Source: a virus. From it: a stretch of DNA of 64,000 nucleotides. Position 1 is the first letter of the stretch. Each line of letters begins with the position of its first letter. Positions 7,325 through 55,345 of this stretch are shown piece after piece. The notes beneath the pieces were generated by a model. That model was not told the origin of the DNA. It did not search any database and worked only from the letters and a program-made list of their open reading frames with translations. The position numbers and the translations under genes are program-made. The DNA lies in the UHGV virus genome UHGV-1364441; one strand, given 5' to 3'.

Positions 7325-7368
7325 CCAATTATGTTAGAAAATTCTATTCAATTATCTAACATAATTGG
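7325..7368. promoter_or_regulatory. Palindromic operator-like site: perfect 14-bp inverted repeat CCAATTATGTTAGA (16-bp spacer), upstream of the rdgC operon
   Basis: Read directly; carries the TGTTAGA core that recurs across the window. Confidence 0.55.
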
Positions 7369-7377
7369 ATGTATTTT

Positions 7378-8031
7378 CTATCCCTTCTTGAAATCAAAGT
7401 TGCTTGCGATAGCCTGGAAGGTGCCTCCAGCCTTGAAATCAATATTTTCGTCGGCTGTCACAGTAATGTTTTTGCCATTAACGCTGATGTTATCGGCTGA
7501 TTTGACGTTAACACTCCCTCCCGCATTCACTACTACATCAGCCGGACCAATGATGTATATCTGCCCTGATTCATTCATTCCAATCCTTGAGCCTGCTGCC
7601 GTATTCGCTATTTCATATCCACCGCCAGCCGTTCGCACTTCGAGCACATTGTTGCGGTGAATCACGAAATCTTTTGTCGCCGAAAATTGCGGGCGGGGAG
7701 GCGCTCCGTCTACTTCTGGTGGCGTCCAGCCGCTACCATTGCCTGACGCCTCCGGCGCGACGTTTGGTACTCCGCCAGGCGCATCCTGAGCTGCGCCAAC
7801 TATCATTGGGCGTCTGGTATCAATTCGACCATTAACATCCAGATAAGGAAACTCTACCCATACCAGGTCGCCTTTTACTGTAGGTACAAACGCGTTACCT
7901 ATGGGTAACAGGTATTCTGCCCAGGGTAGATCGTCATCAGGAACGCCATTCCAGTCTGGTAAAACACGGACCTGAGCACGCATAAGCCCTGCCGGGTGCA
8001 CAGTTCCAACAATTTGCGCTCTACGCTTCAT
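7378..8031 (-). CDS. Baseplate central spike-like protein (gpV/gp5 OB-fold plus beta-helix type)
   Basis: N-terminal OB-fold-like region and C-terminal V-x-V-N-G/K repeats (SVNVKSADNISVNGKNITV); ATGA-coupled to upstream gene. Confidence 0.4.
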   Translation of the reverse strand: MKRRAQIVGTVHPAGLMRAQVRVLPDWNGVPDDDLPWAEYLLPIGNAFVPTVKGDLVWVEFPYLDVNGRIDTRRPMIVGAAQDAPGGVPNVAPEASGNGSGWTPPEVDGAPPRPQFSATKDFVIHRNNVLEVRTAGGGYEIANTAAGSRIGMNESGQIYIIGPADVVVNAGGSVNVKSADNISVNGKNITVTADENIDFKAGGTFQAIASNFDFKKG

Positions 8032-9008
8032 TTGTTCGGCACTCCTAATATCATTCGTGTTGTGTAGCCTACGCGGTCTTCAAAGTGCGCAACATTTTTT
8101 ACTATCAGCTTGCGGGGCATTGATTCATCAATGCGGTTTTCCTGGTCATAGCGGTATACGATAATCTCTATTACCATTCCCGGTTTTATATCCGGATTGC
8201 CTGCGACTTCTATATCCATTTTGGGGACGAGAGACAGCTGCATATTGCGAAGAGTTTCCATATCAGAGTCGGATATATAACGCACTGGGAGTGAGCTATC
8301 GCCATATTCGACGTAGCCATCGGTCATGGAATACCCAACAAAACGATATTGATTCTTTGCTGTTGTCGCATGTTCCTGTTGGAGTAGGCGCATTTTGGAC
8401 AAAGTGTATTCTGCTTTAGGGTTATTCCCCTCGTAGGTAAATGATGGCGTTTGCTTCATCAGATCAGCCAGGGTGTAAAAGTTAAATTCCCCCCGGCATA
8501 CCCAACATAATGCACCTTTGTCTCGCGCTATCTGCGAGAGCATTTTTGACGGTTTGTCGCCTGCGTTCAGGTGATATGTAACCGCACGCTTTAAGACACT
8601 GCTGGAAATTTTAAGATTGCCGCTATACGCCTTGAATATGGTGTCCGGCGTTTTGTTCGTGTGTAGATTGGTGCGAGGGGAGGGGATCTTAAACCGATGC
8701 ACGTCTTCACTGACCGCAATAACGGTAACTACATCCCCAGCCAGCATTGCTGACGTAACAAAAAAAGTTGTTTTAAAAGTGCCTGCATTACCGTTTGGAT
8801 CGCCCATTTCAGCCACCAGCGATGCACCGTATTTAGCTTTCCAGTCATCAATTATGGTGCCTGTCATGTCATGAATTTCCAGCTTCAATAACGGCGCTTT
8901 AAGGCTGCTCTTTTCCACGTACACTGCGGTAAAAATCCAGTCTCGTGGCACTTTGTTATCGTTAATTGTGACTGACTGGAGGAAGTATTGTTGTAACTCC
9001 TGGGACAT
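8028..9008 (-). CDS. Hypothetical protein (in operon with spike-like gene)
   Basis: 326-aa ORF, translationally coupled both sides. Confidence 0.5.
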   Translation of the reverse strand: MSQELQQYFLQSVTINDNKVPRDWIFTAVYVEKSSLKAPLLKLEIHDMTGTIIDDWKAKYGASLVAEMGDPNGNAGTFKTTFFVTSAMLAGDVVTVIAVSEDVHRFKIPSPRTNLHTNKTPDTIFKAYSGNLKISSSVLKRAVTYHLNAGDKPSKMLSQIARDKGALCWVCRGEFNFYTLADLMKQTPSFTYEGNNPKAEYTLSKMRLLQQEHATTAKNQYRFVGYSMTDGYVEYGDSSLPVRYISDSDMETLRNMQLSLVPKMDIEVAGNPDIKPGMVIEIIVYRYDQENRIDESMPRKLIVKNVAHFEDRVGYTTRMILGVPNK

Positions 9009-9011
9009 TGA

Positions 9012-9779
9012 TTACCCCATAGCCAGCGAGGTTTCAGTAACAACGCGTTTCGCGTCCAATTCCCAGGCTGTGATTACATCCGCAATGACGCTTACAGGTG
9101 CCTGAGTAGCATAAATCCTCTCTTCTCCCACTGGTGCCGAAACATCCGTAAATCCAACGTCTTTAGCATCCTGAATGGAGCAAATCAGAGGAACAGGAAC
9201 ACGCACCAGGTTAGTGTTTGCCTCAAATTGTGTTCCGGTCATCAGGCGGAGCCGCGCGCCCAGCGAATTACACATCAGACTCATGGTTGCTTTATCAGTA
9301 GCCATTAACGTAACGTCATAAGTCAGGATAGCCTGGGTGTATTCCAGAGTCGCTAAAGGCATTCCAGTATCCGGGTTGCAAAAACTGGCAGTTTGCCTGC
9401 GGTCTATCTGCTGATCATCATTGATATAGCTGATATCCATAGACCGGGAGATGTTGATCAACGGCAAGGCATCGCGATTAATGTTCTGGTTTTCCGGTTT
9501 TCTTCCTTGCCCAGCATTTGCGCGACGAACTGCTTTAAGAAACTCGATCGCATTGTCGAAACGGGCCACATAGACACGCTCTGCTGGTGGACGATTCAGG
9601 AATGACGCAAAGCGTTTTTCTTCCGGCGCGGGGGCCACCAGTAAGATATCAGAAAAGATATTGCTGATTAGCGTAGCAAACGCGTTATCCACGTTTTCAA
9701 AGCCCGTGGTCTGGAATTTCCCTGTGCGTGAGGTTTGCCATTCACCTGTTCGCGCCAGGAGGGTTTTATTTGAAGTCAT
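9012..9779 (-). CDS. Hypothetical protein
   Basis: 255-aa ORF, start overlaps the upstream stop. Confidence 0.5.
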   Translation of the reverse strand: MTSNKTLLARTGEWQTSRTGKFQTTGFENVDNAFATLISNIFSDILLVAPAPEEKRFASFLNRPPAERVYVARFDNAIEFLKAVRRANAGQGRKPENQNINRDALPLINISRSMDISYINDDQQIDRRQTASFCNPDTGMPLATLEYTQAILTYDVTLMATDKATMSLMCNSLGARLRLMTGTQFEANTNLVRVPVPLICSIQDAKDVGFTDVSAPVGEERIYATQAPVSVIADVITAWELDAKRVVTETSLAMG

Positions 9780-12747: not shown

Positions 12748-13041
12748 TTAAGCGTGGAAAAATAACGGGCGGATATTTGGGCGAGCGGTTTGTGAAGCGA
12801 CCCAAAGCTCATACTGGGATTGCATACCAGTCCACATCTCGGCACTGGTTCCCAGAGCAGATTCCAGACGAAGCGCCATATCAGCAGAAATCCCTGCTTT
12901 CTCGTTCAGAATCCGAGAAAGCGCCGTGCGAGTAATGCCTAATGCGGCAGCTGCATCTGTGACTGATATGTCTCCCAGATACTCACGAAGAACCGCGCCA
13001 GGATGCGCGGGATTATGCATACGACTCATAGTGTTCCTCAA
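12748..13041 (-). CDS. higA: HigA-like HTH antitoxin
   Basis: XRE-type HTH ([22 protein letters not shown]); ATGA overlap with the toxin gene stop. Confidence 0.75.
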
Positions 13042-13319
13042 TGATAATCCTGATAGTCAACAAGAATTGCGTCTTCGCCTTCAAATCGGAAGGTAAGTCG
13101 CCAGTTACCGTTTACTGATATTGCCCAGTGACCTTTAAGGTCTGCCCCCTTTAGTGGGTGCAATTCCCATCCCGGCGCAGACATATCGTCCGGGCGTTTA
13201 GCTGCATTAAGAGCAGTCAATTGAATGCGTAGCTTAATCGCATGTTTAGCTTGAATGCCTGCTGTTGATCCTGTCTTGAAAAATCGTTCAAGCCCTTTAT
13301 GGCGAAATGACTTAATCAA
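13038..13319 (-). CDS. higB: HigB-like toxin (RelE/ParE superfamily)
   Basis: (M)[13 protein letters not shown] ... HPLKGD ... YQDYH; start proposed at in-frame TTG 13319 giving 93 aa. Confidence 0.7.
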
Positions 13320-13655
13320 AATAACTTCATCCGTGCCTGTATCCTGTGTATACACAGTACACACGGAGAGGGCAAAGTGCAAGCACTATTCGGATGAACA
13401 GAGTTAGTTCGTTGTTCTGGAATTTATTGATTGTCAACAAGTGACTTTCATTAAACTTAAGGCATGGACCAGCTCGATAGTGAGCTGGTTGTTATCTACA
13501 GATCGAAGGGATTCGACAAGATGAATACTTTTAATAAGCTGATTGATTTATTGAATAAATTCATTAGCGCCTCTTTAACTAAGCAGGTGTCCACGTCAGT
13601 GTTTTTGTTACTCTTCTACCTGGTATTGCGGGAGTTAACAAAGCTACTGATGTGA

Positions 13656-14309
13656 TCAAAGTATCACTGTATCTTCATCAACTTCTTTCCCAGCCAGTGA
13701 ATTTGGCTGGGGACTGCCTGCTTTAACCTTTTCATGCCCAATAATGGACAGGAACGAAGCGAGGATGCCTGTTTTGTGCTCTTTCTCGACTGTACCTGTC
13801 ATCTGTTCCACGTAATCCGCACTGGCAACGTTGTGGTATACGGTCGCGTAGCAACACAGGATCATAAGAATATGTTCCGGCCTGATGTCCTGCCAGTTCA
13901 CCCGGTAGACTTCTTCTCCGTTACCGTTGTATTCGGTGTCAACGATGGAGTCGGGGATTTCGAAAGCACCTTTGTTATTTTGCGGCAGGGATAATAGCTT
14001 CTGGAGTTTTAGCTCTCTGTATCTTTCCATCCCGACGATGATCGCAGCTCTGCCGTCGGCATGACGTGTCTTGAGTGTTACCTGGCTTGCTCCGGTGCCA
14101 GCGGAGATCGTTGGCGTAATTTCGTCTACCAGCACCTTAAATTTGCTTTTCCGCAGGGCTGCTATAGCTGGAGGAATTTTTTGCTTTTGTTCCAATGCTG
14201 ACGCGGGAAGGGGTTTTACTTCGTTAATCACGAGAGCGCCGTCTTTCAGTATTGCAGTGAGCATTTGCGGTTTGCTGGTGGTCAGGCTGAATATTGCGAT
14301 CTTTTCCAT
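13656..14309 (-). CDS. Hypothetical protein
   Basis: Start at MEKIAIFSL with strong GGAGGAAGG RBS. Confidence 0.55.
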   Translation of the reverse strand: MEKIAIFSLTTSKPQMLTAILKDGALVINEVKPLPASALEQKQKIPPAIAALRKSKFKVLVDEITPTISAGTGASQVTLKTRHADGRAAIIVGMERYRELKLQKLLSLPQNNKGAFEIPDSIVDTEYNGNGEEVYRVNWQDIRPEHILMILCCYATVYHNVASADYVEQMTGTVEKEHKTGILASFLSIIGHEKVKAGSPQPNSLAGKEVDEDTVIL

Positions 14310-14334
14310 TGTCCTTCCTCCACGGATGACGGAT

Positions 14335-14360
14335 ACAAAAAAAGGCCGCACATGGCGGCC
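14335..14360 (-). terminator. Terminator-like hairpin plus T-run about 30 nt upstream of the 13656-14309 start
   Basis: GGCCGC-ACATG-GCGGCC followed on the minus strand by TTTTTT. Confidence 0.45.
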
Positions 14361-14577
14361 TGCTTTGGCGTTATGACTCCCTACCGCGCTTCGGCTGAAA
14401 GTTAATCGTCAAAAGAACCTTCAACGGGAGCCGTTAGCGCGATGGATTATGTGCAGTTTGTGATTTCCAGAATAGTGTCAACTACTTTTTTGTGGATTTT
14501 TTATTTGCCTGAAATTTGGCCTAAATCATGTTGATGTAGCTTGTTGTTTTTATAACATAAAACTTCATTTTGTTTAC

Positions 14578-15201
14578 ATGAAGGACGGTGTAGTGAAGTT
14601 AAGGGTTTTGGGGGCCGCGCTCGCGGCTATGCTGGGATGTGTATCTGTAAATACAGCCACTGCAACTGCGTTACCCGCACAATTCAGGGCAGGGAAGCAG
14701 GTTATGAATAATGCTGGCGGGGATCGTTCGCAGGCGGCGATATTGGACTTTTGCAAGAGGGAGGGCATCCCATTGCGGCCTGTTGGCACTCAGTTTGTTG
14801 GCAATTCTGACTTTTGCGTTTTTGCATATACAGCGTATCTGACTGATAAAGCTATAACAAAAACAGGTTATTCAACTAAAGATACTCTTGCCAGATTAAG
14901 TCAGGGATGGCAGCAATTCGAAGTGTATCGCCAGCAAGGATTAGGTGAGCTATTGCAGCCACTTTTTATGCTTGCCTTGGTGCCAGAAGGGCAGCAATTT
15001 TTGGTTAAAAAGAGAATGCTTCGCCAAAGCGATGTTGCCGGGTTCGATAGCATGATGGCTTATGAGCGCCAACTAACTGAGCAGCGCAATAAAAAACCAT
15101 CTGCATCATGTGTGCAAAGTAAAACAGCAGAATACAGTGCAGTGGCTGGTCCTTTAGCCAAACAAATGGCAGAGCAATGGTGTAAAAAGTACGGGCAATA
15201 A
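14578..15201 (+). CDS. Secreted or lipoprotein-like hypothetical protein
   Basis: N-terminal signal peptide (LRVLGAALAAMLGC...); true start may be the GTG near 14593. Confidence 0.5.
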   Translation: MKDGVVKLRVLGAALAAMLGCVSVNTATATALPAQFRAGKQVMNNAGGDRSQAAILDFCKREGIPLRPVGTQFVGNSDFCVFAYTAYLTDKAITKTGYSTKDTLARLSQGWQQFEVYRQQGLGELLQPLFMLALVPEGQQFLVKKRMLRQSDVAGFDSMMAYERQLTEQRNKKPSASCVQSKTAEYSAVAGPLAKQMAEQWCKKYGQ

Positions 15202-15221
15202 GTTACGTAGCGGAGGCAAAA

Positions 15222-15614
15222 TTGAAAAAATTAGCTATTGCTTTATTGGCTGCTTTTCCTTTGCTGGCAGACGCTGGGAATCTGCAAGTGAAATGCGGTC
15301 AGTTTGATATAAAAATCTATCCAAACGCTATATTTCTGAACGGGAATAAGGTCGATAACGCACATCGTAAAACTGAATCTGACGTAATGAGTTATGTGTT
15401 CCAGGAATATGCAGAGATGGGAGGCACTTATACGCTGTACTCGCTTGATGTTCCTTCTCGCGGTGATATGACATTATCCCATCAATGGCAGAATGCCGAT
15501 GGCGAAGCTCTGCGCGAGGTGAAGACAGAAAAATGTGGCACTTTCCATTCTTTTGAGGGTAAAGCGCCAAATGTTAAATCTGTGCTTGAAAAACAGCGTG
15601 CAGGTGAGTTTTAA
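15222..15614 (+). CDS. Secreted hypothetical protein
   Basis: Signal peptide MKKLAIALLAAFPLLADA; GGAGG RBS; TTG start. Confidence 0.6.
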   Translation: MKKLAIALLAAFPLLADAGNLQVKCGQFDIKIYPNAIFLNGNKVDNAHRKTESDVMSYVFQEYAEMGGTYTLYSLDVPSRGDMTLSHQWQNADGEALREVKTEKCGTFHSFEGKAPNVKSVLEKQRAGEF

Positions 15615-15671
15615 CCAGTATTAATTATGCCGCCCCACCTTATAGCGGAGTGGGGCGGATTGTTCCCATTG

Positions 15672-15839
15672 TTATTTTTTTCTTTTCATTTTCATGGATT
15701 GTTTACAGGCATAAGCCAACGCCTTAGCTTTCACTTCATCCAGTTTCCCTGTAATCACTTCTTTTCCGAGAGTGACAAACCAGTCATAGCAACCGCCAGT
15801 GATGTTCTGGATTTGATAATTCAGGTAGCGAACGGTCAT
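15672..15839 (-). CDS. Small protein, 55 aa (MTVRYLNYQIQNITGG...KRKK), not in ORF track
   Basis: Own translation; ATGA-coupled to an upstream 31-aa ORF. Confidence 0.4.
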   Translation of the reverse strand: MTVRYLNYQIQNITGGCYDWFVTLGKEVITGKLDEVKAKALAYACKQSMKMKRKK

Positions 15840-15931
15840 TTTGATACTCCCTCCAGTTTTGATGGGAGCAAAGAACGCAGGTTATTGCGTGAGTAGACGG
15901 TGAGTGATGGGAAAAGTTTGTAATTGTTCAT
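15836..15931 (-). CDS. Tiny ORF, 31 aa (MNNYKLFPSLTVYSRNNLRSLLPSKLEGVSK)
   Basis: Canonical AAGGAG 6 nt upstream; stop overlaps the next ATG. Confidence 0.3.
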   Translation of the reverse strand: MNNYKLFPSLTVYSRNNLRSLLPSKLEGVSK

Positions 15932-15979
15932 AGTGACTCCTTGCTTTCGAAGCCGTCACAGACTGTTCCACGGTCTGGT

Positions 15980-16046
15980 GGCGGCGCAATACAGGTTGGA
16001 ACACCGTGAGTCAACGGGGGCTTTTAGCCACCTGTATTGCGCTGCC
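15980..16046. repeat. 17-bp inverted repeat (GGCGGCGCAATACAGGT / ACCTGTATTGCGCTGCC, 1 mismatch) with 33-nt spacer
   Basis: Read directly; lies between the Ref-like gene and the small ORF pair. Confidence 0.4.
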
Positions 16047-16156
16047 ATAACTATGACATTGGCAATCATACGAAATCCTTGAGGATTTGTCTCGTTGCGT
16101 CGAGCGGTGAACCAATCTAATCAAAATGTACAATCAGTAAATTTCAAACTCAACAT

Positions 16157-16177
16157 AAAATGTTAGAAAATTAATTC
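16157..16177 (+). promoter_or_regulatory. Operator-like motif AAAATGTTAGAAAATTAATT overlapping the Ref-like gene stop
   Basis: Instance of the recurrent TGTTAGAAA motif. Confidence 0.5.
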
Positions 16178-16749
16178 ACCATTTCTTGCACCGTCTGATA
16201 GAGCGTCATCTCTTCGGCATTGTGCCGTATAAAATCTGCTTTCCCGCCTATTTTTCCATCAGCATGAACAGGAACCAACCAGGGATATTGTTCGCGGATC
16301 TCTGCTGGCGCTGCGTGCTGGTGGTGCCATTTACACAAAGGGAGAACGTATTTATGGGCATCTTTAGCCGTTCTGCCAAATATGTGGTGGAGAGATACGA
16401 CAGGGCTATGCTTCCCGTGAAGATGGCAGGCAATACAGGGGAGTTTGCCTATAGCGTCCTGTATCCGGCGCTCTTCTGCTGTGAGTGATCTCCCTTTTAA
16501 TCCGCGTGACGGGCGCGTTTTTTTGGGGAGGGCTGACGCCGCCCTCTCTCTTCTGCGCTGTTCACTTTGCCTCACTTTTTCAAGTTTCTTTTGACGATAT
16601 TCAGGCGATGCGGCTTTTTCCCTTGCGCGTTGCTGCTGGCGTTGAGCCTGCTGAAGACGTTTTGCCCTTTGCTCTTCCCGCCATTCCGGATCAGCCAGTT
16701 TTTGCATGGCTTTTTGTCTCTGTTTCTCCCAATAACTCTGTCTCTGCAT
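16171..16749 (-). CDS. Ref-like HNH endonuclease (P1 recombination enhancement function type)
   Basis: Highly basic, K/R/E/Q-rich N-terminal half; C-terminal Cys/His cluster (CIACHLHG ... HHIFGR ... LPLCKWHH). Confidence 0.6.
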   Translation of the reverse strand: MQRQSYWEKQRQKAMQKLADPEWREEQRAKRLQQAQRQQQRAREKAASPEYRQKKLEKVRQSEQRRRERAASALPKKTRPSRGLKGRSLTAEERRIQDAIGKLPCIACHLHGKHSPVVSLHHIFGRTAKDAHKYVLPLCKWHHQHAAPAEIREQYPWLVPVHADGKIGGKADFIRHNAEEMTLYQTVQEMVN

Positions 16750-16795: not shown

Positions 16796-16830
16796 TTTGT
16801 TAGATATTCAAAATTGATTTTCTAACATAA
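16796..16830. promoter_or_regulatory. Operator-like inverted pair TTGTTAGA-N15-TCTAACA upstream of the Ref-like gene
   Basis: Read directly, 45-80 bp upstream of start 16749. Confidence 0.5.
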
Positions 16831-19826: not shown

Positions 19827-20515
19827 TCCAGGCTCTGCATGAAGTGAATTTATATAGCCGTATTGATGGTTCAGGCTACAGAAACATATGGGTTGTTGGT
19901 GATTTGCACGGTTGCTACACCCTACTTATGAATGAACTCCATCGTGTGGATTTTGACCCGACACAGGATTTACTGATATCGGTTGGCGACCTTATCGATC
20001 GCGGCGCCGAAAATGTTGAATGCCTGGAGCTATTGCAGATGCCCTGGTTCAGGGCAGTAGTGGGGAACCATGAGCTGTTGATGCTCGATGCGTTAAGTCC
20101 TGATGGCAACGTGAATAACTGGCTAATGAATGGCGGTCAATGGTTCTTCATGCTGGACGCTGATCAGGAAATATTAGCCAGGGCGCTGGTGGAGTTGGTA
20201 AGACGACTGCCCTATATCATTGAGTTGAACACCGGGCAAGAAACTATCGTTATAGCCCATGCCGACTATCCGGATAATGAATATCAATTCGGTAAGGAGG
20301 TGCCGCTTTTCAACGTTGTCTGGGCGCGCGAGCGTATCAGTGATTCGATAGATGGCATTGGTGGAGAAATCACAGGCGCAGATCGCTTTATCTTTGGGCA
20401 CACACCGGTACGAAGACCAAAAGCATACTGGAATCAGCACTACATAGACACGGGCGCGGTTTTTTGCGGAAATCTGACGCTAATGCAGGTGAAGGGAGGA
20501 CAGCTTAAAGTCTGA
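19823..20515 (+). CDS. Serine/threonine protein phosphatase (lambda PP / PrpA-like metallophosphatase)
   Basis: GDLHG, GDLIDRG, GNHE motifs; ATG 19823 overlaps upstream stop. Confidence 0.85.
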
Positions 20516-20535: not shown

Positions 20536-20574
20536 AAATGTGTTAGAACATTGATTTTAGTTTTCTAACATATT
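20536..20574. promoter_or_regulatory. Operator-like inverted pair TGTTAGA-N16-TCTAACA between the phosphatase and DUF968-like genes
   Basis: Read directly. Confidence 0.5.
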
Positions 20575-20612: not shown

Positions 20613-21608
20613 ATGAGTGCAATAATCACACCTCATTTCGTAAACGGAGCTGGTGTGGCTGTCTTTCCGGTAGACAAGCCCACCAGTAACTACATTGGCG
20701 TAGGTCGCCGTTTCATTATCTCCCCACTTCCGCGTGAACAGGCTGAAAACACGCCAGATGGCGTAGTGGATCTGAATTATTCGCTGGTTGCCAACCAGTC
20801 TCTGAAACCGTTTTTTCAAAGCGAGCGCGTATTTAACGCGTTGGGCGGTGAAGATTCGCTTGTTCATTGGGTAAGTTCCAATATCCACGATTGCCAGGCG
20901 CACGATAAGCGCGATTGCAGCCACCAGCTAACCACTCATTTCTATAACGGCTCTGCCGTTCGCCTGTGCTGGAAGCATGATGCGGAATACATGATGAAGG
21001 GGTACAGCAAGCTGGACGACCAGTTATCCCTGAATCGTGCCAACTGGGTTATGAACTGGGCTGCGAGCGAGTTAAAACTACCGCCAGAACGCGATCTGAG
21101 CATGGTTGAACTCACTTTTTGGGCCATTCGCCGGAATCTGAAAGATGAGCTGCCAGATGAAGCCGGTCGCATTGCATTTTGTCAGCCAAAAACTGAAATC
21201 CCTACCGGTACGCTGAAAGAATCAGATATCACCTGGGAGCACAGTACCCGCGAGCTGGTGGACATAACCGCAGAGCAGATCGTCAACCTGTCTGTAGATG
21301 AGGATTCCGGCCTGCTTTATATGCGCCGACCAAAAGCGGTCCTCGGTAAAAGCCCGGCTTATCTCCGGTTTGTGGTTTCTCGTCCGTGCATCGGATGCGG
21401 TGGCAAAGTTAACCACCCGTTCATATACCGCGCCCGCTCGTTAAACGAACACGACCGCTGGGCTGTTCCTCTTTGCGATGACTGCGCCAGAAGCGCAGAA
21501 AACGATGTCCGGGCATGGGAAAAAGCACATGGCATACGCCTTTACGTAGCCGCTAACCAGCTTTTTGACTTCGCCATCGAGCGCGGAGTGATCACTTTCA
21601 ATAACTGA
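20613..21608 (+). CDS. DUF968-like prophage protein with C-terminal Cys/His (HNH-like) cluster
   Basis: CIGCGG ... H ... CDDC motif; general resemblance to YdfU-type lambdoid proteins. Confidence 0.5.
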   Translation: MSAIITPHFVNGAGVAVFPVDKPTSNYIGVGRRFIISPLPREQAENTPDGVVDLNYSLVANQSLKPFFQSERVFNALGGEDSLVHWVSSNIHDCQAHDKRDCSHQLTTHFYNGSAVRLCWKHDAEYMMKGYSKLDDQLSLNRANWVMNWAASELKLPPERDLSMVELTFWAIRRNLKDELPDEAGRIAFCQPKTEIPTGTLKESDITWEHSTRELVDITAEQIVNLSVDEDSGLLYMRRPKAVLGKSPAYLRFVVSRPCIGCGGKVNHPFIYRARSLNEHDRWAVPLCDDCARSAENDVRAWEKAHGIRLYVAANQLFDFAIERGVITFNN

Positions 21609-21624
21609 TGAGGTGGATCAAAAA

Positions 21625-22314
21625 ATGAAAGAACGCGGGATGATTTTTAACGATGAGATGGTCAGGGCCATCCTCGAAGGAGGGAAGACGCAGACTCGCC
21701 GACCTGTAAAAAATGTCAGGGCCGATAACTGCCTGGTTATCCGTAAACCGACAAAGAAACGCAATGGTGTCTATACCCACGTTATGGATGCACCTGAACA
21801 TGGTTTATGCCCGTTCGGTAACGTTGGTGATCGCATATGGGTCCGTGAGGCGTGGGCGATATTAGGCAATGAGGATGGTTGCAGTGTGGACTGGAACGAC
21901 AACCTTTGTCGTGGCGATGAGAAGAACGCAGCAAGGATTTATCGGGCCAGTTGTGAGCAAAAGCCGGGTGATTACGGCTTGTGGTCGATACCCGATGATG
22001 CCGACTGGAAACCTCACACTGTGAATGAAAAATTTGATGGCGGGTGGTGTCCATCAATTCACATGCCGCGCTGGGCATCGCGCATTCTTCTGGAAATTAC
22101 CAACGTGCGCGTTGAGCGGTTGAACGATATCAGCGAATGCGATGCAAGGGCTGAGGGCGCACCAACAGAATCGACCCTCATTGGCGATAAGCATTACCCA
22201 AGTTTCCGTAGCCTATGGAAATCAATTTATGGCGAAGATAGTTGGAACGCTAATCCCTGGGTGTGGGTAATCGAGTTTAAGCGTATTCAGGGGGCAACCA
22301 GTGAGCAAAATTAA
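21625..22314 (+). CDS. Conserved prophage hypothetical protein
   Basis: EMVRAILEGGKTQTRR N-terminal pattern; ATG 21625 with GAGGTGGA RBS. Confidence 0.5.
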   Translation: MKERGMIFNDEMVRAILEGGKTQTRRPVKNVRADNCLVIRKPTKKRNGVYTHVMDAPEHGLCPFGNVGDRIWVREAWAILGNEDGCSVDWNDNLCRGDEKNAARIYRASCEQKPGDYGLWSIPDDADWKPHTVNEKFDGGWCPSIHMPRWASRILLEITNVRVERLNDISECDARAEGAPTESTLIGDKHYPSFRSLWKSIYGEDSWNANPWVWVIEFKRIQGATSEQN

Positions 22315-27521: not shown

Positions 27522-27523
27522 AT

Positions 27524-32232: not shown

Positions 32233-32252
32233 ATGTGTTAGAAATTTAATTT
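32233..32252 (+). promoter_or_regulatory. Operator-like motif ATGTGTTAGAAATTTAATTT at the 3' end of the recombinase gene
   Basis: Instance of the recurrent motif. Confidence 0.45.
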
Positions 32253-33463: not shown

Positions 33464-33634
33464 GAAATTTAGGAATTTTTTTTCTTTCCGCGCAGATGGG
33501 CAATGCATTGCTGGTGTGGGCTTTAAGTTATGCCTGGCAGTTTTTAAGCAGAATTTTCTAAATTGGATGATAAAAAAATGCATCTTGATCCTTTACTCAC
33601 CCTGTTATTCGGCATAGATTTGTCATAGTAATTT

Positions 33635-33652
33635 TATGTTAGAAAACTAAAT
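33635..33652 (+). promoter_or_regulatory. Operator-like motif TATGTTAGAAAACTAAAT about 15 bp upstream of the 33665 start
   Basis: Instance of the recurrent motif. Confidence 0.45.
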
Positions 33653-33664: not shown

Positions 33665-34702
33665 ATGAGTAAGAAGTCGATCGAGAAAGAGTACAAACGG
33701 TTCCTGCAAACCGCTGAACGGTGGAAAGAGCTGGTGGTCGCAAACTCTGTTTTCCATGATACCAGTTATTCCGGCGAGGAATTCCGCCATGTTGCACTAA
33801 CACATGATCAGAATGTGCTAGAAGAAGCTGAAAAGTGCCTCACAGAATGGAAAGCCTTTGTTGACTTGTGCCGTAACGCTGACGGCAAAGCGTCTAACAT
33901 TGTTGAGTCTGTATATTCTCCGATCCCATTCATTATCGAGGACACAAATCAAAGCACGCATATTGTTGTGCAAAGCGCGACCACCACCCGCTCATTTACG
34001 CGCGAAAATCTGCTCAAAAAATATGATGCAATTATAAAGAAAAGCCTGAAAAACAAGATATTTTCGCAGATTGTTGGTGCACTTGAAGAAGAGCGCCGTT
34101 TTTTCGCATCAGAACCTGAAGGGGAAGTTTACCGGGCGCGCAAAGATGGATACACAGATGTAGTGCTTACAACAAACATTGAAGGCAGCAATGCTCTGTC
34201 ACGATTCAGGGTAGGCGCACACGGAGCCTTAGTGTTCGCAAAACTTCCGAACACCACAGTGCCCGTTGTTAATAATGTCGGCGAACGTCGCAGCATTACT
34301 ATTTATTCTGGGGTTGAGTCGATACCTTGCGGCCTGCTTGGTGACTTTAGTCTCTATCGCGTTCGCGATCTGGAGAAACACCAACCAAGCTATGTTGCGA
34401 AGTCATACATCTTGCGAAACATCGACATCCGCAATGAGAGCTTAAAGAACAAATCAGCCAAAATGCTTGAGGAAGCCGATCCGGCTATTCGCCATATCAT
34501 TGAGCGTAAAATACAGACAGCACGCGAAGCGATGGCGCGACTGAATAAAATGGATCTGGAGTTGTTAGACGTAATGATGACATCCGGAGATGACCTGACA
34601 GGCATAAAACTGACAGACGCGCGGAAAAGATACGGTAAAACCATAGAAGAACGTTACGGGTTCACTTTCTCCCAAACACAGCACGCCGCTAAACTCTGGT
34701 AA
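33665..34702 (+). CDS. Hypothetical protein; candidate C1-like master repressor (by position only)
   Basis: Sits between the rox site and pacB, convergent with pacB, as c1 does in P1; operator-like motif just upstream; no sequence-level assignment made. Confidence 0.4.
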   Translation: MSKKSIEKEYKRFLQTAERWKELVVANSVFHDTSYSGEEFRHVALTHDQNVLEEAEKCLTEWKAFVDLCRNADGKASNIVESVYSPIPFIIEDTNQSTHIVVQSATTTRSFTRENLLKKYDAIIKKSLKNKIFSQIVGALEEERRFFASEPEGEVYRARKDGYTDVVLTTNIEGSNALSRFRVGAHGALVFAKLPNTTVPVVNNVGERRSITIYSGVESIPCGLLGDFSLYRVRDLEKHQPSYVAKSYILRNIDIRNESLKNKSAKMLEEADPAIRHIIERKIQTAREAMARLNKMDLELLDVMMTSGDDLTGIKLTDARKRYGKTIEERYGFTFSQTQHAAKLW

Positions 34703-38065: not shown

Positions 38066-38097
38066 TATATTAGAAAATTAATTCCATTCATCTAACG
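38066..38097. promoter_or_regulatory. Operator-like pair TATTAGAAAATTAATT ... TCTAACG (degenerate)
   Basis: Variant of the recurrent motif between two minus-strand genes. Confidence 0.4.
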
Positions 38098-38490
38098 CTA
38101 CCAGCGAGATAAGCGAACGACGTGTTTTACCTTAGCGATCCACTTACCACGTGAGTTATTAATTACGGCCTGCGCCACCTTTAAGCTGACTTCAAAATCA
38201 GCCTTACGACCATCAGAATCCACCAGCGTTGCACCGTCTATTTCCGGCAGGCTTAAATAATCCTGTTCTACCTCTAATGGCATTGACGGCTCTCTGAATG
38301 GTGTCAATTGCCGAGCTTTCCAGATAAAGCGAACTCTCAATCCCCTATAAGCCATTACCATGTAGCCTGTTATCGTGCTCTTATGGCCTGCATCAGTACG
38401 CGCAGCATTACACGATACAATCTTACAGGTGACGATATTCCACTCCACGTTGGAGACTTCGTGAATGCTTAATTTTGTTGTCTCGTACAT
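38098..38490 (-). CDS. Hypothetical protein (130 aa)
   Basis: ORF coupled to the upstream gene. Confidence 0.45.
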   Translation of the reverse strand: MYETTKLSIHEVSNVEWNIVTCKIVSCNAARTDAGHKSTITGYMVMAYRGLRVRFIWKARQLTPFREPSMPLEVEQDYLSLPEIDGATLVDSDGRKADFEVSLKVAQAVINNSRGKWIAKVKHVVRLSRW

Positions 38491-39595: not shown

Positions 39596-39604
39596 AGATT
39601 ACTG

Positions 39605-39733: not shown

Positions 39734-40007
39734 CACTTGCAGCTACCTTTTAAGACAAAACGCCATTGCTGTTAGATTGCGGTGCCTGGTGCCTCCAGGT
39801 GACGTTAACCAGTTAACAATTAACGCCGGGATGTTTGACTTCACTATTGAGGAAAATTGTTTTAACTGTTCCGCGTGCGCTTAGCCGCATTCACCGCAAT
39901 GGTAAGAGCACTTGGCTGGCTGGGCGGCGATGACGCCTGTACGCATTTGGTGATCCGGTTCTGCTTCCGGCATTCGCTTAATTAGCCAAATACTCTTAAC
40001 GTTGCGC

Positions 40008-40094
40008 TGGCGGAGAGTAATGGAATCGAACCATCATCGCTTGCGCAATGGGACGGTTTTCAAGACCGCTTGAGCACCATGCTCCCTACTCTCC
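40008..40094 (-). tRNA. tRNA-Ser (anticodon UGA), type II with long variable arm
   Basis: Manual fold: 7-bp acceptor, 3-bp D-stem, anticodon loop CUUGAAA, variable-arm hairpin with GCAA loop, T-loop TTCGATT, CCA encoded. Confidence 0.65.
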
Positions 40095-40478
40095 GGCCGT
40101 TGTGGTGGCCGGTACTGAATCTCCGGCATACGGTGCAGCCAATTAGGACTACGGACGATCACCGCTCGCGAAAGGGAAGGTTTGCGGCCGCATTTCCCTA
40201 ACATCCAAGAAAGCTATCGCATCAGTCTGCGAATCCACCACAACGTTGAGAACACTGGTTGTCACGCTGCAACGCAACATTTATTCGTAGATTGGGATAT
40301 GACCCCGTTACGTCAGTGTTCTCAACGTTGTAGTACCGGTTACGGTTCCGGCCAGGCCTCTTCCTCAACGGGGTATTCTCCATACGGACTACCGTTTATT
40401 GGTCGTTCCTGCGGTTTATGTTGTGAAGCCAGATGCTTATCTTCTGGTTGCTTCAAAGAGCTGCACTTCATCACAACG

Positions 40479-40552
40479 GTAAGGGTACTTCGTAGGGATT
40501 CGAACCCTCTGCCAAGCACGGCGATCTCCGACGTCGCAAAATACCCTTACCT
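40479..40552 (-). other. tRNA-like fragment or structured element (T-arm-like GGGTTCGAATCCC inside a 10-bp closing stem)
   Basis: Does not fold as a canonical cloverleaf (no D or anticodon arm in register, no CCA). Confidence 0.3.
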
Positions 40553-40559
40553 GTTGTGT

Positions 40560-40635
40560 TGGTGCCGATTAACGGACTCGAACCGCTGACATCCTGCTTA
40601 CAAGGCAGGCGCTCTACCAACTGAGCTAAACCGGC
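40560..40635 (-). tRNA. tRNA-Thr (anticodon UGU)
   Basis: Manual fold: canonical cloverleaf, anticodon loop CUUGUAA, CCA encoded. Confidence 0.85.
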
Positions 40636-40637
40636 AT

Positions 40638-40714
40638 TGGCGATGGTGGGTGGATTCGAACCACCGACCGACAGCTTAGAAGGCTGCTGCTCTATCCTAC
40701 TGAGCTACACCATC
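40638..40714 (-). tRNA. tRNA-Arg (anticodon UCU)
   Basis: Manual fold: canonical cloverleaf, anticodon loop CUUCUAA, CCA encoded; 2 nt from tRNA-Thr. Confidence 0.85.
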
Positions 40715-41579: not shown

Positions 41580-41783
41580 AGGATGTGCATTGATGATGAT
41601 TCGATGCGGCGAGTCCCGTTACTCTCTGCCGGACCATCATCAATGAACATCTTAAAAAGACCTTCCGTGGCTCAACATGTCTTGTCGTTTACTCCGTAAA
41701 GTGCTCTCTCTGAAACCACTTTACGCACTAAACCTGCTGAACTTTGGCTTGCTCGGTGCCAAAGCAAATCCCTGTATGCATGT

Positions 41784-41805
41784 AATTTTCTAACACTTTA
41801 ATTTG
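41784..41805 (-). promoter_or_regulatory. Operator-like motif (minus strand GTGTTAGAAAATTAC)
   Basis: Instance of the recurrent motif. Confidence 0.45.
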
Positions 41806-41937
41806 TTATTTGCTGGTGGGCGAACAACAACCAATAAGTGACTATCAAGCCCAGCAAGCGAAATGTGGCAACGCTCCACCAGCAAGGAAAATTCTAAGTT
41901 AAGTTACTCTCACAATCAATATGTTCGTTTGGTGAAA

Positions 41938-41960
41938 TTAGATTTCTAACACATTATTTC
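41938..41960 (-). promoter_or_regulatory. Operator-like motif (minus strand GTGTTAGAAATCTAA) overlapping the 41954 stop
   Basis: Instance of the recurrent motif. Confidence 0.45.
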
Positions 41961-43183: not shown

Positions 43184-43207
43184 AAAATTAGTTTTCTAAC
43201 ATATTTT
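43184..43207 (-). promoter_or_regulatory. Operator-like motif (minus strand ATATGTTAGAAAACTAATTT), 10-25 bp upstream of the 43174 start
   Basis: Instance of the recurrent motif. Confidence 0.5.
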
Positions 43208-43787: not shown

Positions 43788-44252
43788 TTAATCAAGACAA
43801 ACATATTCCGTGATAGCTTTTATGGCTTCAGCGGCACTGCGCGCCTCAAAGCAGTAGTAACCCGCTTCGGTGAGGCGAGTCATCCAGACGAGTTGTTCGG
43901 GAGTCAGGCGATTTCTCCCATGTTTCATCTCAATGCGCATTCCGTGGTATCCACCGCAAGCAAGGTCTATAGAAAGATCGGGATATCCCTTCTTTTGCCC
44001 TTCTGCCACCATCTTTATTGCCGTCCTTATGCCTCGCAGACCGCCGTTTGGAGTGGCGTGTGTATGCTCATACACATAGCGCATATTGCGATACAACCAA
44101 TCCAGGACGCGTACCTGCTCGTAATGCTCATGGTTCCTTTTTATTAGATCTGGGTTTTTCTCCAGTTCTCTGAGAGCTGCGGCATGTGGGGATGTTTCAG
44201 AATATTCACTGCGACGCCTTCTTTTTCGCGCTATTTTTTCTAACACACCCAT
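43788..44252 (-). CDS. VRR-NUC domain nuclease
   Basis: Q..V..WL ... NGG ... GYPDL ... E.K pattern. Confidence 0.6.
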   Translation of the reverse strand: MGVLEKIARKRRRRSEYSETSPHAAALRELEKNPDLIKRNHEHYEQVRVLDWLYRNMRYVYEHTHATPNGGLRGIRTAIKMVAEGQKKGYPDLSIDLACGGYHGMRIEMKHGRNRLTPEQLVWMTRLTEAGYYCFEARSAAEAIKAITEYVCLD

Positions 44253-44420
44253 TGATAGTAAATAAGCGAAATAATAACAACTGCGTTAGATTTGTAAAAC
44301 AAGAGAAATACTACTCAAGGCTGGGCTATATGCAACAGGTCGGATTTGCTTTTAGAGTAAAGAGTGACCTTAATCAACAAGGAGGGTAAATCGCATGGTA
44401 TTTACCCAACTTGTTATTTT

Positions 44421-44681
44421 TTAAATGTTTATTTTATCCGGTTCGGATATTTCTGTGATTGTCTTGTCGATTGCGATCAACCACCCTTCATAGGTTAAAT
44501 CGTCAACAAGCTCTACCAGTTTGTCTTCTGTATGAGGGAAGTATACCCAGCTCCAGCTCGCCGGGTTTTCTGCTTTTCGCAGCGTAAAAACCTTCTTGTA
44601 ACGGTGGAACTCAAGGACATACCCCTTCGATATGGAATATTCCTTTAGGTCTTCGAGCGTAAACCGACGGTTCTTTCGCAT
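44421..44681 (-). CDS. Hypothetical protein (86 aa)
   Basis: ORF adjacent to the next gene. Confidence 0.4.
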   Translation of the reverse strand: MRKNRRFTLEDLKEYSISKGYVLEFHRYKKVFTLRKAENPASWSWVYFPHTEDKLVELVDDLTYEGWLIAIDKTITEISEPDKINI

Positions 44682-44683
44682 GA

Positions 44684-52663: not shown

Positions 52664-52864
52664 TCAAGTCACGATCCAATCATTACCGACTATATCAGCC
52701 GTCGATAAATCAACTTCCCGGATCTGGAGTCCATTAATACAAAACCATCCGGTAGTAGAGTAATTATCAGGCCAGGCCCATACACCAACACTCCATGCTT
52801 TACGGCGGCACACTTCAGCCTGTTCTTCCCTGATTTTTTTTACCGCCTGCATGATGTCCATCAC
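52664..52864 (-). CDS. Hypothetical protein (66 aa)
   Basis: ORF coupled downstream of the Rha-like gene. Confidence 0.35.
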   Translation of the reverse strand: MMDIMQAVKKIREEQAEVCRRKAWSVGVWAWPDNYSTTGWFCINGLQIREVDLSTADIVGNDWIVT

Positions 52865-53553
52865 TCACCTCCCCAACCGATCACCTGGAATTGCCCCATT
52901 TTTGGGTGATACCAGCGTTTTCCTCGGTGTTCAGCCTCCGACATCATCCGGTTAAAAGCATTCATGAAGGGAGATAAGGCCACGATGGATCGACGCGACA
53001 ATACCCCCTCTGGAGTTAAAAACTCATGTGTATCGGTGGGAATCCGGTAAGCGTTGACCAGGTTGCGACATTTGGCTTTGGTCAGGCCGCATTTTGCCGC
53101 CAGCTGGCGGTAGCCAATGTAGCCTTCCGGCATATTGCCTTTCTTGATTTGCTCAACGGTTTCAGCGACCTGGCTAACCTTTGACTCAACAGCATGAAGC
53201 CGCTTTTGCTGCTGAACTGCATTTGCAGCCATTGCGGCGATCTTCTCTATTTCGGTCAACGGCTGGCGTACTTGTTCTTCCAGTTCGCGCCAGCGGTCCA
53301 CCAGCCGGGCGGTGAATTCCGGAGAGAGCTGCGCAACGACAATAATGCTGTCTCGTTTGCCTTGCTCGCCTTCGAAGACGTAATAGCTCGCCGGGCGGCC
53401 TGCGGTGGGCTTTTCCTCAATTTGAGGAAAAGATATTACGCCCCGTTCCGCTAGGTGTTCAATGGTGCGTTTAACGTTATCAGGGCGCTTACCTACCAGT
53501 TCCGCGATCTCAATGCTGGTCATTGATGGCTTTTCAAGAATGCAGATATCCAT
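52861..53553 (-). CDS. Rha-family phage regulatory protein (antirepressor-like)
   Basis: N-terminal Rha/Bro-N-like HTH region; ATG 53553 with GGAGG RBS, ATGA overlap with upstream ORF. Confidence 0.65.
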   Translation of the reverse strand: MDICILEKPSMTSIEIAELVGKRPDNVKRTIEHLAERGVISFPQIEEKPTAGRPASYYVFEGEQGKRDSIIVVAQLSPEFTARLVDRWRELEEQVRQPLTEIEKIAAMAANAVQQQKRLHAVESKVSQVAETVEQIKKGNMPEGYIGYRQLAAKCGLTKAKCRNLVNAYRIPTDTHEFLTPEGVLSRRSIVALSPFMNAFNRMMSEAEHRGKRWYHPKMGQFQVIGWGGE

Positions 53554-53975
53554 CAGTGTGCCTCCGCAATTCCGGAATTGGTAATATTGCGATACCAAGG
53601 ATTAGTGTTTGGTTGTGATGAAGAAGAGAAACGGCCAGTAAGGACGCCATGTTGATCAGGGATCAGAGAACGGGCTTCTTTTTCAGTTGCGGCAATTGCG
53701 AAGTGATCACAGTGTTTTTGCAGGGAGTGGAAACGCCAGATAAATTCCGGGCGCGAGCAAGGATTGGCATTAACCATAGTTACGGCCTCATTCGTAGGTT
53801 TAACAACCTGCGCCCCGCTGCTAAACGGGTGGCAGGACGTGACGGGGTTAGCAGACTGGCACGAATGAAACCAGCAGGCCGAAGCCTCCCCATCACGCCC
53901 CACCATAATTCGGGCGTAACGTGGTTTTACGGACACAAAAATACCGCAATATCGGATATCTGCGGTTGTCCGCAT
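53553..53975 (-). CDS. Hypothetical protein upstream of the Rha-like gene
   Basis: Coupled ORF; an antisense ORF 53649-53993 competes, so the coding frame is uncertain. Confidence 0.3.
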   Translation of the reverse strand: MRTTADIRYCGIFVSVKPRYARIMVGRDGEASACWFHSCQSANPVTSCHPFSSGAQVVKPTNEAVTMVNANPCSRPEFIWRFHSLQKHCDHFAIAATEKEARSLIPDQHGVLTGRFSSSSQPNTNPWYRNITNSGIAEAH

Positions 53976-54120
53976 TCGTATTCAGGCTGCTAAACCCGGT
54001 CGCAGAATTTGCTACGACGACATGAATATAAGCCTGAAAACATGGAAGATCAACTAAAAATTTCAGCAATGGATGACTTCAGTCGATGATGCAGATCATA
54101 CATTCCGATTTAGAAACGGC

Positions 54121-54144
54121 AAATTAATTTTCTAACACAAAATG
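54121..54144 (-). promoter_or_regulatory. Operator-like motif (minus strand TTTTGTGTTAGAAAATTAATTT), ~150 bp upstream of the 53975 start
   Basis: Instance of the recurrent motif. Confidence 0.5.
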
Positions 54145-54191
54145 TCGAGCGAGCATTTTCCGATCATTGGGATGTTTTGTAGACGCACAGG

Positions 54192-55154
54192 TCATCCCCT
54201 AAAGCCAGCCGGGATTGACCAATCCTCACGGTCAAATTCAGACCGATAGCCACGCTGTTTCATCAGGTCAAAGGCTTCACCAATGGTTGCACACCCCTGG
54301 GAGCCAGAATAATCCATTGAGAAATCCAGGGCACTGGATTGTTTAGGCTTATTCACTGCGGTAGCGGCACTACGTATCCATGCAAATTTTTTTGCCAGCT
54401 TTTCAGCGGTACGATACAGAGCCTGCCGTTTTGTGTGCCCCTCGTCTGAACGACGCTTTGCAGCTCTCGCTTTTGCCGCCGCCAGGCAGTGGTTGGTCTG
54501 TTCTTCCCTGATTACTGTTTTTTTATCCAGTACCCCGTTATCCGTTTGAGAACTATCTGCTGGTGAAGCCTTTGGCTGAACCGCGCATGATCTTTCTCTT
54601 CTTTTGGCTATAGAGTGACTCTTATTTTCTATTGGCTGTTCATTTTGAACATGGGGGGACTTGTTCAATTTGAACAGGGGGTTCCCAGTTTCAAAAAAAT
54701 AACGAACCTTTGAAATCAACTGCTTAACCAGTTTTGTGGCGTTGGCAAATTTGATGCCCTGCTTACCCCCTATCTCCATTGCTACATGAATGAAGTGGAG
54801 AAATTGTGTCGTAAACCGATATACGTTACACACCTGGGCATTGTTATTCGCTACCTGATGTTGCTTAACAAGCATTCCGCACTTCGTCGCTTCAGCAAAT
54901 GCCCGGCGTACAGTAGAAATACTGCGTCCTGTAATCTCGGACATATCAGCATATGAGCGACGGATCATGTATTCATCGGTAGACCCTGCCAGGTTGGCGA
55001 ACTCGGCAATAATGGCGCTATGTGAAGGGGAAAGAAGACCGCTATGACGAGCAAAAAAACTCAACTGATGACCTTTGATTTTTTTGTGGTATTCAGTGTT
55101 GTTTTTATACTCAGAAGTGTTGAAAGTTACTGAAACTGAATTTAAAATATTCAT
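54192..55154 (-). CDS. Hypothetical DNA-binding protein, possibly replication-associated
   Basis: N-terminal HTH-like segment ITGRSISTVRRAFAEATKCGMLV; 320 aa. Confidence 0.45.
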   Translation of the reverse strand: MNILNSVSVTFNTSEYKNNTEYHKKIKGHQLSFFARHSGLLSPSHSAIIAEFANLAGSTDEYMIRRSYADMSEITGRSISTVRRAFAEATKCGMLVKQHQVANNNAQVCNVYRFTTQFLHFIHVAMEIGGKQGIKFANATKLVKQLISKVRYFFETGNPLFKLNKSPHVQNEQPIENKSHSIAKRRERSCAVQPKASPADSSQTDNGVLDKKTVIREEQTNHCLAAAKARAAKRRSDEGHTKRQALYRTAEKLAKKFAWIRSAATAVNKPKQSSALDFSMDYSGSQGCATIGEAFDLMKQRGYRSEFDREDWSIPAGFRG

Positions 55155-55214
55155 CAGATAGTTCCGTGCAAAAATCTATCTACCGTATAAATCTATGCCA
55201 GTGGATTTATACAC

Positions 55215-55249
55215 CAAAAAGCCGCTTCTCAGCGGCTTTTGCTTTTTTT
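55215..55249. terminator. Bidirectional rho-independent terminator
   Basis: GCCGC-TTCTCA-GCGGC hairpin with T-runs on both strands. Confidence 0.65.
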
Positions 55250-55324
55250 GGCAGTCGCTACCGGAGCAGTGACCGCGATCCTACTCGATCACATCGGACA
55301 GGATCAACAGTGTATATAAATACA

Positions 55325-55345
55325 CTATGTTAGAAATTTAATTTC
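55325..55345 (+). promoter_or_regulatory. Operator-like motif CTATGTTAGAAATTTAATTTC
   Basis: Instance of the recurrent motif between the late-operon end and the terminator. Confidence 0.5.

Follow-up and report, generated by a model that had tools for sequence, protein, structure and literature searches.

The C1 repressor of bacteriophage P1 binds asymmetric 17-bp sites as a monomer. P1 carries 22 such operators, dispersed and asymmetric, with the consensus ATTGCTCTAATAAATTT, and C1 controls repL and lpa (PMC8546580). The operators of P1 and P7 are Op2, Op21, Op51, Op53, Op55, Op68, Op72, Op82-88, Op94 and Op99; the P1 RefSeq record annotates experimentally defined C1 operators, and we used these for a locus-by-locus comparison. 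Here, we report on UHGV virus genome UHGV-1364441, a 64,000-nucleotide stretch of viral DNA (the window, taken over its whole length), which is from a D6-like, P1-family plasmid prophage of Escherichia coli. An earlier reading of its letters alone (the original prediction) had proposed that a dispersed, operator-like motif marks a repressor regulon resembling that of P1 C1, with altered specificity. Our analysis indicates that these 17-mers are very probably the operator set of the resident C1 repressor.

Many plasmids of about 90 kb, from E. coli, Shigella and Salmonella, are 97-99% identical to the window, and phage D6 (MF356679, AY753669) is about 91% identical to it. The open reading frame (ORF) at 33665-34702, nominated as the repressor gene in the original prediction, corresponds to the D6 gene annotated as "prophage repressor, similar to P1 C1", and adjoins the dre recombinase gene and the rox site. 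Although c1 is annotated in D6, no operators are annotated in either D6 GenBank record, and a search of the open literature found no paper combining D6-like elements, operators and the repressor; Gilcrease & Casjens 2018 and Sauer & McDermott 2004 lie outside this coverage.

A dispersed 17-bp motif in intergenic DNA

An unbiased enrichment analysis finds only two over-represented 9-mer families in the window, Chi and the operator motif, and the operator motif also ranked first in a mismatch-tolerant de novo search of intergenic DNA. The operator consensus is taken as the 17-mer RTGTTAGAAAAYTAATT, with TGTTAGAA used as the label for its core. The exact word TGTTAGAAA/TTTCTAACA occurs 12 times on the two strands of the 64-kb window against 0.56 expected, with a maximum of three in 100 dinucleotide shuffles, and ATGTTAGAAAAYTAATT with up to three mismatches is found 14 times against 0.36 expected. 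A weight matrix of 19 columns, built from the window sites, yields 14 sites scoring at least 21.8 bits and one partner arm at 13.9 bits, and the rest of the window stays below about 10 bits. When the window was resampled 300 times under a second-order Markov model, 0.003 sites were expected at or above 20 bits, the median best score was 11.8 bits, and no resample had more than one comparable match. Because the real sites still score 15.9-30.5 bits when rescored leave-one-out, the matrix result is not circular. The dispersed motif described in the original prediction is, therefore, real and enriched, and its enrichment is absent from dinucleotide shuffles and Markov resamples alike.

Fifteen of the 17 motif positions are A or T and intergenic DNA is itself A+T-rich, so that a chance or compositional artefact has to be considered. 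However, this explanation is refuted by 14 sites where 0.003 are expected, and the core is moreover conserved across elements at 70-90% nucleotide identity; we give a chance origin next to no credence.

On the D6 annotation all 15 site centres are intergenic, although coding sequence makes up 89.8% of that genome (binomial P = 1.3e-15), and two sites overlap a stop codon, that of ref by 6 bp and that of dre by 1 bp. The claim that the strong copies are intergenic or at the extreme 3' end of a gene thus holds. Strong sites number 14 across 11 loci, to which a few weak ones can be added; they lie on both strands, and the distance to the start codon downstream varies from 12 to 173 bp. At four loci (hrdC, ref/orf88, pdcB and, weakly, lpa) two 17-mers form an inverted pair with a fixed offset of 15 bp and an overlap of 2 bp. 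All coordinates in the original list of copies are correct, with the partners at 16799 and 38091 being degenerate arms (13.9 and -3.5 bits), and the 14-bp arms reported within 7325-7368 are indeed perfect (CCAATTATGTTAGA at 7325-7338 and 7355-7368, spacer 16 bp), but the list missed a core-only copy at 44237-44245(-). Promoters were called by a crude hexamer scan and are predictions only: hexamers were predicted within or beside the sites upstream of hrdC, ref, pdcB, pmgS, c4 and c1.

Operator specificity and the resident repressor

The original prediction had quoted the P1 consensus correctly (PMC8546580) and had noted that the window motif differs from it. Allowing three mismatches, ATTGCTCTAATAAATTT is matched 17 times in P1 and nowhere in the window, and conversely the window motif has zero to one match in P1, which is chance level. 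Since the P1 consensus is not matched in the window, the element falls into a separate specificity group and not into the P1/P7 group. The two consensus sequences can be aligned either collinearly (TGyT..AA.A) or as reverse complements (shared TTAGA), and site orientation at homologous loci does not discriminate between the two alignments. Short stretches of close DNA similarity bring the two operator types side by side. The c4 module is 86% identical to that of P1, and the segment that corresponds to the ban-operon leader and tRNA (transfer RNA) region of P1 is 90-92% identical; in both modules the homology stops just short of the operator and each phage has its own operator type there. In the tRNA region the homology begins only downstream of the position of P1's Oban (Op72).

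The motif tracks the C1 type across relatives. D6 has all the window sites at the corresponding loci, plus a further one beyond the window (D6 54201-54219, upstream of orf52). Operators are 94% identical between the window and D6 where their flanks are 91% identical, and for a plasmid whose C1 is 72% identical the figures are 89% and 78%. In four relatives, L006, L011, L012 and L013 (C1 72, 53, 50 and 45% identical, respectively), the TGTTAGAAA core is kept at the same loci and the 3' half drifts. The Pantoea plasmid pPSP-26e, with a C1 that is 29% identical, has a third motif, WTTTAGAAWYS with a TG-rich 3' half, which occurs 11 times against 0.35 expected; exact 9-mer enrichment missed it and it was found through the shared TTAGAA core. 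Its copies follow the integrase gene, precede c1 and hrdC, and are placed around lpa and to either side of pmgS; they are also found beside the capsid gene, which is the locus of the one D6 site outside the window.

These comparisons bear on the possibility that the motif is not an operator at all, but a shared promoter or UP-like element, a site for a host nucleoid protein, or a recombination "boundary" at mosaic junctions. In its favor, the motif lies in intergenic DNA, is rich in A+T and at several places overlaps a predicted -35 or -10 hexamer, and two copies sit exactly at the ends of DNA homology with P1. However, orientation and start-codon distance vary (both strands, 12 to 173 bp), four copies are in fixed-offset inverted pairs, and some lie at gene 3' ends. 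More tellingly, the motif is specific to one C1 type, with P1 and the Pantoea element having other motifs at the same loci; a site for a host factor or a general promoter site would not change with the phage repressor, which weighs against a non-operator role. We consider such a role very unlikely.

The predicted C1 of the window is, by sequence comparison, a genuine but distant homologue of P1 C1. The two proteins are 19-20% identical; BLASTP gives 20% over 239 residues with an expect value (E) of 6e-8, and hhalign gives 98.4% with an E of 6.5e-15 over 231 columns. Precomputed annotation places the family PF27008 (Phage_P7_repressor_C1) on both C1 subfamilies.

Several observations weigh against the assignment of the 17-mers to C1. 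The hexamer scan finds no convincing promoter beside the sites at 32235, 41780 and 55327, the predicted hexamers near 41936 and 38067 are at least 20 bp away, and four sites are at gene 3' ends, where it is hard to see how they would occlude a promoter. The circuit also departs from that of P1, in that no homologue was found for either partner of P1 C1, the antirepressor Coi (encoded upstream of c1) and the corepressor Lxc: there is no plus-strand ORF of more than 33 amino acids (aa) between rox and c1, and BLASTP shows no similarity between Lxc and the 86-aa ORF at the lxc position, remote homologues being possible for both. Lxc was also undetected in a D6-like Salmonella plasmid (PMC6799933). 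Finally, the element encodes other DNA-binding proteins, namely the Rha/helix-turn-helix (HTH) protein at 52861-53598 and a "transcriptional regulator" near 15300-15600.

The last point raises the alternative that another regulator of the element, either the winged-helix (Rha) protein encoded in the immI module or the small "transcriptional regulator" downstream of ref, binds the sites and that C1 acts elsewhere. In keeping with this, C1 has no recognisable classical DNA-binding motif and no match to an HTH family in a local Pfam scan. Nevertheless, the sites are at the loci of P1's C1 operators, one of them precedes c1 by 12 bp, the motif varies between lineages along with the C1 type, and the "transcriptional regulator" gene is in a region that differs from D6, yet D6 keeps all the sites. 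Binding by another regulator is therefore improbable, if slightly less so than a non-operator role.

We favor the assignment of the 17-mers to C1 because four lines converge on it: the homology of C1, the mutually exclusive operator sets, the breaks in homology at the operators and the tracking of the motif with the C1 type. Together with the identity of the element and the shared loci, this supports the view that the sites form a P1-C1-like regulon with altered specificity, as originally proposed. We infer that C1 is the binder, that the sites overlap promoters, that binding represses them, and that C1 binds as a monomer through a Tus-like cleft, to which we return below. In a lysogen, C1 would occupy the 14 strong sites at 11 loci plus the few weak ones, on or beside promoters for repL, lpa, c4-icd-antirepressor, the hrdC-dcm-dam operon of recombination and methylation genes, ref, pdcB/pmgT, pmgS, the tRNA operon and c1, and this occupancy would keep the lytic programme off and autoregulate c1. 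One C1 molecule per 17-mer would be expected because the site is asymmetric, as for P1 C1, and at the four bivalent loci two sites would face each other at the fixed 15-bp offset. The individual sites are listed in Table 1.

Table 1. Putative C1 operators of the window, the c1 gene, and their counterparts in P1
Feature	Coordinates	Strand	Sequence	Position and remarks	P1 counterpart
Bivalent operator, hrdC	7331..7362		7331-7347(+) ATGTTAGAAAATTCTAT; 7346-7362(-) ATGTTAGATAATTGAAT	12 bp upstream of hrdC (RdgC-family) start 7318; heads minus-strand hrdC-dcm-dam operon	Odmt (Op68), positional
Monovalent operator	16160..16176	+	ATGTTAGAAAATTAATT	Overlaps stop of ref (16171-16749, minus strand); upstream of small minus-strand genes (15672-15839 and following)	Omat (Op2b), likewise overlapping ref stop
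Bivalent operator, ref	16797..16828		Strong arm 16812-16828(-) ATGTTAGAAAATCAATT; weak arm 16797-16813(+) TTGTTAGATATTCAAAA	Weak arm 13.9 bits; between divergent ref(-) and plus-strand operon reaching ppp; predicted -35 hexamers of both divergent promoters inside operator	Oref
Bivalent operator, pdcB	20540..20571		20540-20556(+) GTGTTAGAACATTGATT; 20555-20571(-) ATGTTAGAAAACTAAAA	41 bp upstream of DUF968/pdcB-like gene (20613-21608), then pmgT-like genes	OpmgT (Op88), functional
Monovalent operator	32235..32251	+	GTGTTAGAAATTTAATT	Abuts stop of dre recombinase gene (32251-33279, minus strand); upstream of orf117-orf116-dut operon (31833-32177 and following, minus strand); position also occupied in Pantoea element and L006	
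Candidate weak distal c1 operator	33548..33564	-	AATTTAGAAAATTCTGC	-2.5 bits, not significant by matrix	
c1-proximal operator	33636..33652	+	ATGTTAGAAAACTAAAT	12 bp upstream of c1 ATG, downstream of predicted promoter TTTACT-17-TAGATT; presumed autoregulatory site for c1	Op99 cluster
c1	33665..34702	+		D6-type C1 repressor, 345 aa, PF27008 family; presumed binder of all sites	
lpa operator	38067..38098		Strong arm 38067-38083(+) ATATTAGAAAATTAATT; degenerate partner 38082-38098(-) GCGTTAGATGAATGGAA	Partner -3.5 bits, not significant alone; 38067 site 78 bp upstream of start of lpa (37597-37989, minus strand), late-promoter activator gene	Olpa (Op94)
Operator	41780..41796	-	GTGTTAGAAAATTACAT	Proximal of two sites upstream of minus-strand tRNA cluster (39520-40714); with 41936 site heads tRNA/tci operon	OpmgT / Oban (41936/41780 sites)
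Operator	41936..41952	-	GTGTTAGAAATCTAATT	1 bp past pmgS stop (41954)	See 41780 site
Operator	43186..43202	-	ATGTTAGAAAACTAATT	12 bp upstream of pmgS start (43174), just past predicted -10 hexamer	OpmgR (Op86)
Core-only copy	44237-44245	-	GTGTTAGAAAAAATAGC	5' end of pmgM; poor 3' half, below threshold	
Operator	54122..54138	-	GTGTTAGAAAATTAATT	53 bp past repL stop; abuts predicted -35 (TTGCCG) of immI module promoter, as with P2c4 in P1	Oc4 (Op51) and Orlf (Op55)
Operator	55327..55343	+	ATGTTAGAAATTTAATT	Between pro and repL (lytic replication gene, 54192-55154, minus strand); 173 bp upstream of repL start	OrepL (Op53)

The weak site at 33548 is included only for the sake of the relatives, which have a good site in the same orientation about 83 bp (L011, L012) or about 95 bp (L013) upstream of the proximal one. 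The two c1-upstream sites of the relatives flank the predicted c1 promoter, and it is the distal one that is degenerate in the window. A rox-like site, TAACTTTAAATAATGCCAATTATCTAAAGTTA, lies at 33433-33464. This recombination site of the element is an imperfect inverted repeat, as a single A/G difference separates the two 14-bp arms, and the right arm shares bases with a weak operator-like word, AAGTTAGAAATTTAGGA (33459-33475). Around the start of pmgM, the core-only copy overlaps the first codons of the pmgM ORF within 44229-44301(-), and a TCTAACGC word is found about 50 bp upstream. A 1-nt indel within this stretch in D6 suggests a leader and not coding sequence. At the pmgM start there is a site in both L006 and L012, just inside the annotated ORF and just upstream of it, respectively, matching P1 O26 (Op82).

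The C1 protein and a possible Tus-like fold

At 345 aa, the window C1 is longer than the P1 protein (283 aa), with about 100 extra C-terminal residues in predicted long helices. This C-terminal extension, residues 243-345, has predicted helices at 233-270 and 276-307 plus short ones, and is not in P1 C1; it might pair C1 molecules on the frequent bivalent operators. Six residues are invariant in both C1 subfamilies (R41, P86, P88, R157, R159 and G187) and lie in or beside predicted beta strands, making them candidate DNA contacts. A profile search of 1.84 billion proteins places the PF27008 C1 family in 132 clusters at 50% identity, and 157 plasmid records have the C1 type of the window.

An AlphaFold2 model of C1, built from a 12-sequence alignment, has a mean predicted local distance difference test (pLDDT) of 83.7 and a predicted template modelling (pTM) score of 0.52. 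Its predicted fold may resemble that of Tus, though the support is at most moderate and TM-scores against Tus reach only 0.37-0.43. The Tus fold has two alpha/beta domains, between which lie the DNA-binding strands; the protein works as a monomer, holds an asymmetric site (about 23 bp) in the interdomain cleft, and regulates its own gene by way of TerB, which precedes the tus start codon by 11 bp. A Tus-like architecture, if true, would explain how C1 binds asymmetric 17-bp sites as a monomer. It would also be the first structural clue to the recognition of an asymmetric site by C1, and would make C1 a candidate relative of Tus.

Sequence comparison of C1 with E. coli Tus is negative: hhalign gives 0.3% with a 12-sequence profile and 2.4% with an 86-sequence profile. 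PF05472, the Tus family (replication terminus site-binding protein), is not found in C1 by Pfam scan, nor in any of the ten weakest full-length matches scanned from the profile search of 1.84 billion proteins. No significant match for the C1 model came from the BFVD viral structure library, the AlphaFold model of a P1-type C1 (pLDDT 57) is too poor to test the fold, and a literature search found no paper linking C1 to Tus. According to one proposal, Tus itself arose when a plasmid gene was recently domesticated (PMC6549158). Taken further, the C1 proteins of the PF27008 family in P1-family phage-plasmids may be Tus-like monomers that grip an asymmetric site in a cleft and share ancestry with Tus-Ter, a proposal that we make tentatively and with the odds somewhat against it. 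If it is true, the chromosomal Tus-Ter fork trap would share ancestry with the immunity repressor of a phage-plasmid, and the P1, D6 and Pantoea C1 types would constitute a natural series of re-targeted specificities at fixed loci. In contrast to the Tus-Ter fork barrier, there is no evidence of fork arrest for C1, which figures here as a transcriptional repressor.

We also considered whether the operator itself is Ter-like, as the c1-proximal TATGTTAGAAAACTAAAT, 12 bp before the ATG, resembled TerB (TATGTTGTAACTAAAGT), 11 bp before the tus ATG. This idea was rejected: by Monte Carlo, the D6, P1 and Pantoea consensus sequences match TerB no better than column-shuffle controls do (P 0.39-0.99).

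Gene modules and comparison with known immunity systems

The region that the 54122 site would control had been described as a Rha/Ant-like operon. In full it is a P1-type immI module with a C4 antisense RNA. Rfam identifies the C4 antisense RNA at 53825-53910(-) (71.9 bits) and its a1b1 target element at 53979-54031(-) (52.2 bits), directly downstream of the 54122 site and upstream of icd and a Rha-family antirepressor (52861-53598, -); judged by sequence, a1b1, C4 RNA, icd and antirepressor make the module complete. The tRNA cluster at 39520-40714(-) has four genes, Met-CAT, Ser-TGA, Thr-TGT and Arg-TCT. Its content differs from that of the D6 record, where the tRNAs are Ser, Thr and Asn on the other strand.

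Downstream of ref, at 13000-16150, D6 has a second icd-antirepressor (Rha) module and the window has unrelated small genes, one of which, near 15300-15600, is annotated as a "transcriptional regulator" in the 99%-identical plasmid CP057755. The operon under the 16160 site, therefore, differs between close relatives. The 86-aa ORF, 44421-44681(-) (phrog_6844), is directly downstream of ulx, where P1 has the corepressor gene lxc, and could be either an analogous corepressor or unrelated. The -22 box of P1 late promoters, AAGTTACTT as read from P1, shows no enrichment here.

The most enriched word family in the window is the E. coli Chi sequence, GCTGGTGG, with 49 copies against 1.84 expected on the two strands (for example 70-77, 33730-33737 and 41812-41819). 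It is also the most enriched in D6-like and Pantoea relatives. A similar excess has been described in P1. Four segments, 19877-20478, 21623-22159, 27522-28289 and 63383-63997, are 90-98% identical to P1 (ppp, pmgT, hot-humD and cin, respectively), and the DNA around them is otherwise too diverged from P1 for blastn. Because such short, highly similar segments are embedded in diverged DNA, the sequences indicate that heteroimmune phage-plasmids exchanged modules recently.

The findings give the probable recognition sequence and full list of targets for the immunity repressor of D6-like plasmid prophages, which are common in E. coli, Shigella and Salmonella isolates. The operator set predicts which D6-like elements would be immune to one another, as well as the promoters that would fire on induction. 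The system is ordinary in kind and its recognition sequence is new. That D6 has operators of its own is what a specialist would expect; a Tus-like fold, which has no more than moderate support, is the part that would be surprising.

Dispersed asymmetric sites for a single repressor have a precedent in the cluster A mycobacteriophages, such as L5, whose immunity repressor gp71 is a helix-turn-helix protein that binds many short asymmetric sites, some of them within or after operons. One repressor and many scattered asymmetric sites are common to these stoperators and to the window. However, stoperator orientation follows transcription and that of the window sites is mixed, C1 has no HTH match, and the proteins are unrelated. 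A polar "roadblock" function at gene 3' ends is not supported, as the four sites there are inconsistently oriented to incoming transcription, two forward and two reverse.

P1 and P7 are the closer comparison. They share with the window a homologous repressor and about an equal number and density of asymmetric 17-bp sites, and the regulated loci common to P1 and the window include ref, the hrdC/dmt operon, lpa, repL, c4-icd-ant, pmgR/S, the tRNA/ban leader and c1. Unlike P1, the window has no site at an ssb gene. Both mix monovalent with bivalent (tail-to-tail inverted) operators, but the window has four bivalent operators with a 15-bp offset, whereas the only one in P1, Oban, has an 11-bp offset. 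The system is of the same type as the immunity regulon of P1 C1, but its operator sequence is new, its repressor has diverged strongly, bivalent operators are more numerous, and neither Coi nor Lxc was detected. With the same wiring in P1, D6-type and Pantoea-type elements, and both repressor and operator changed, the three represent a natural experiment in the re-targeting of a presumed monomeric repressor.

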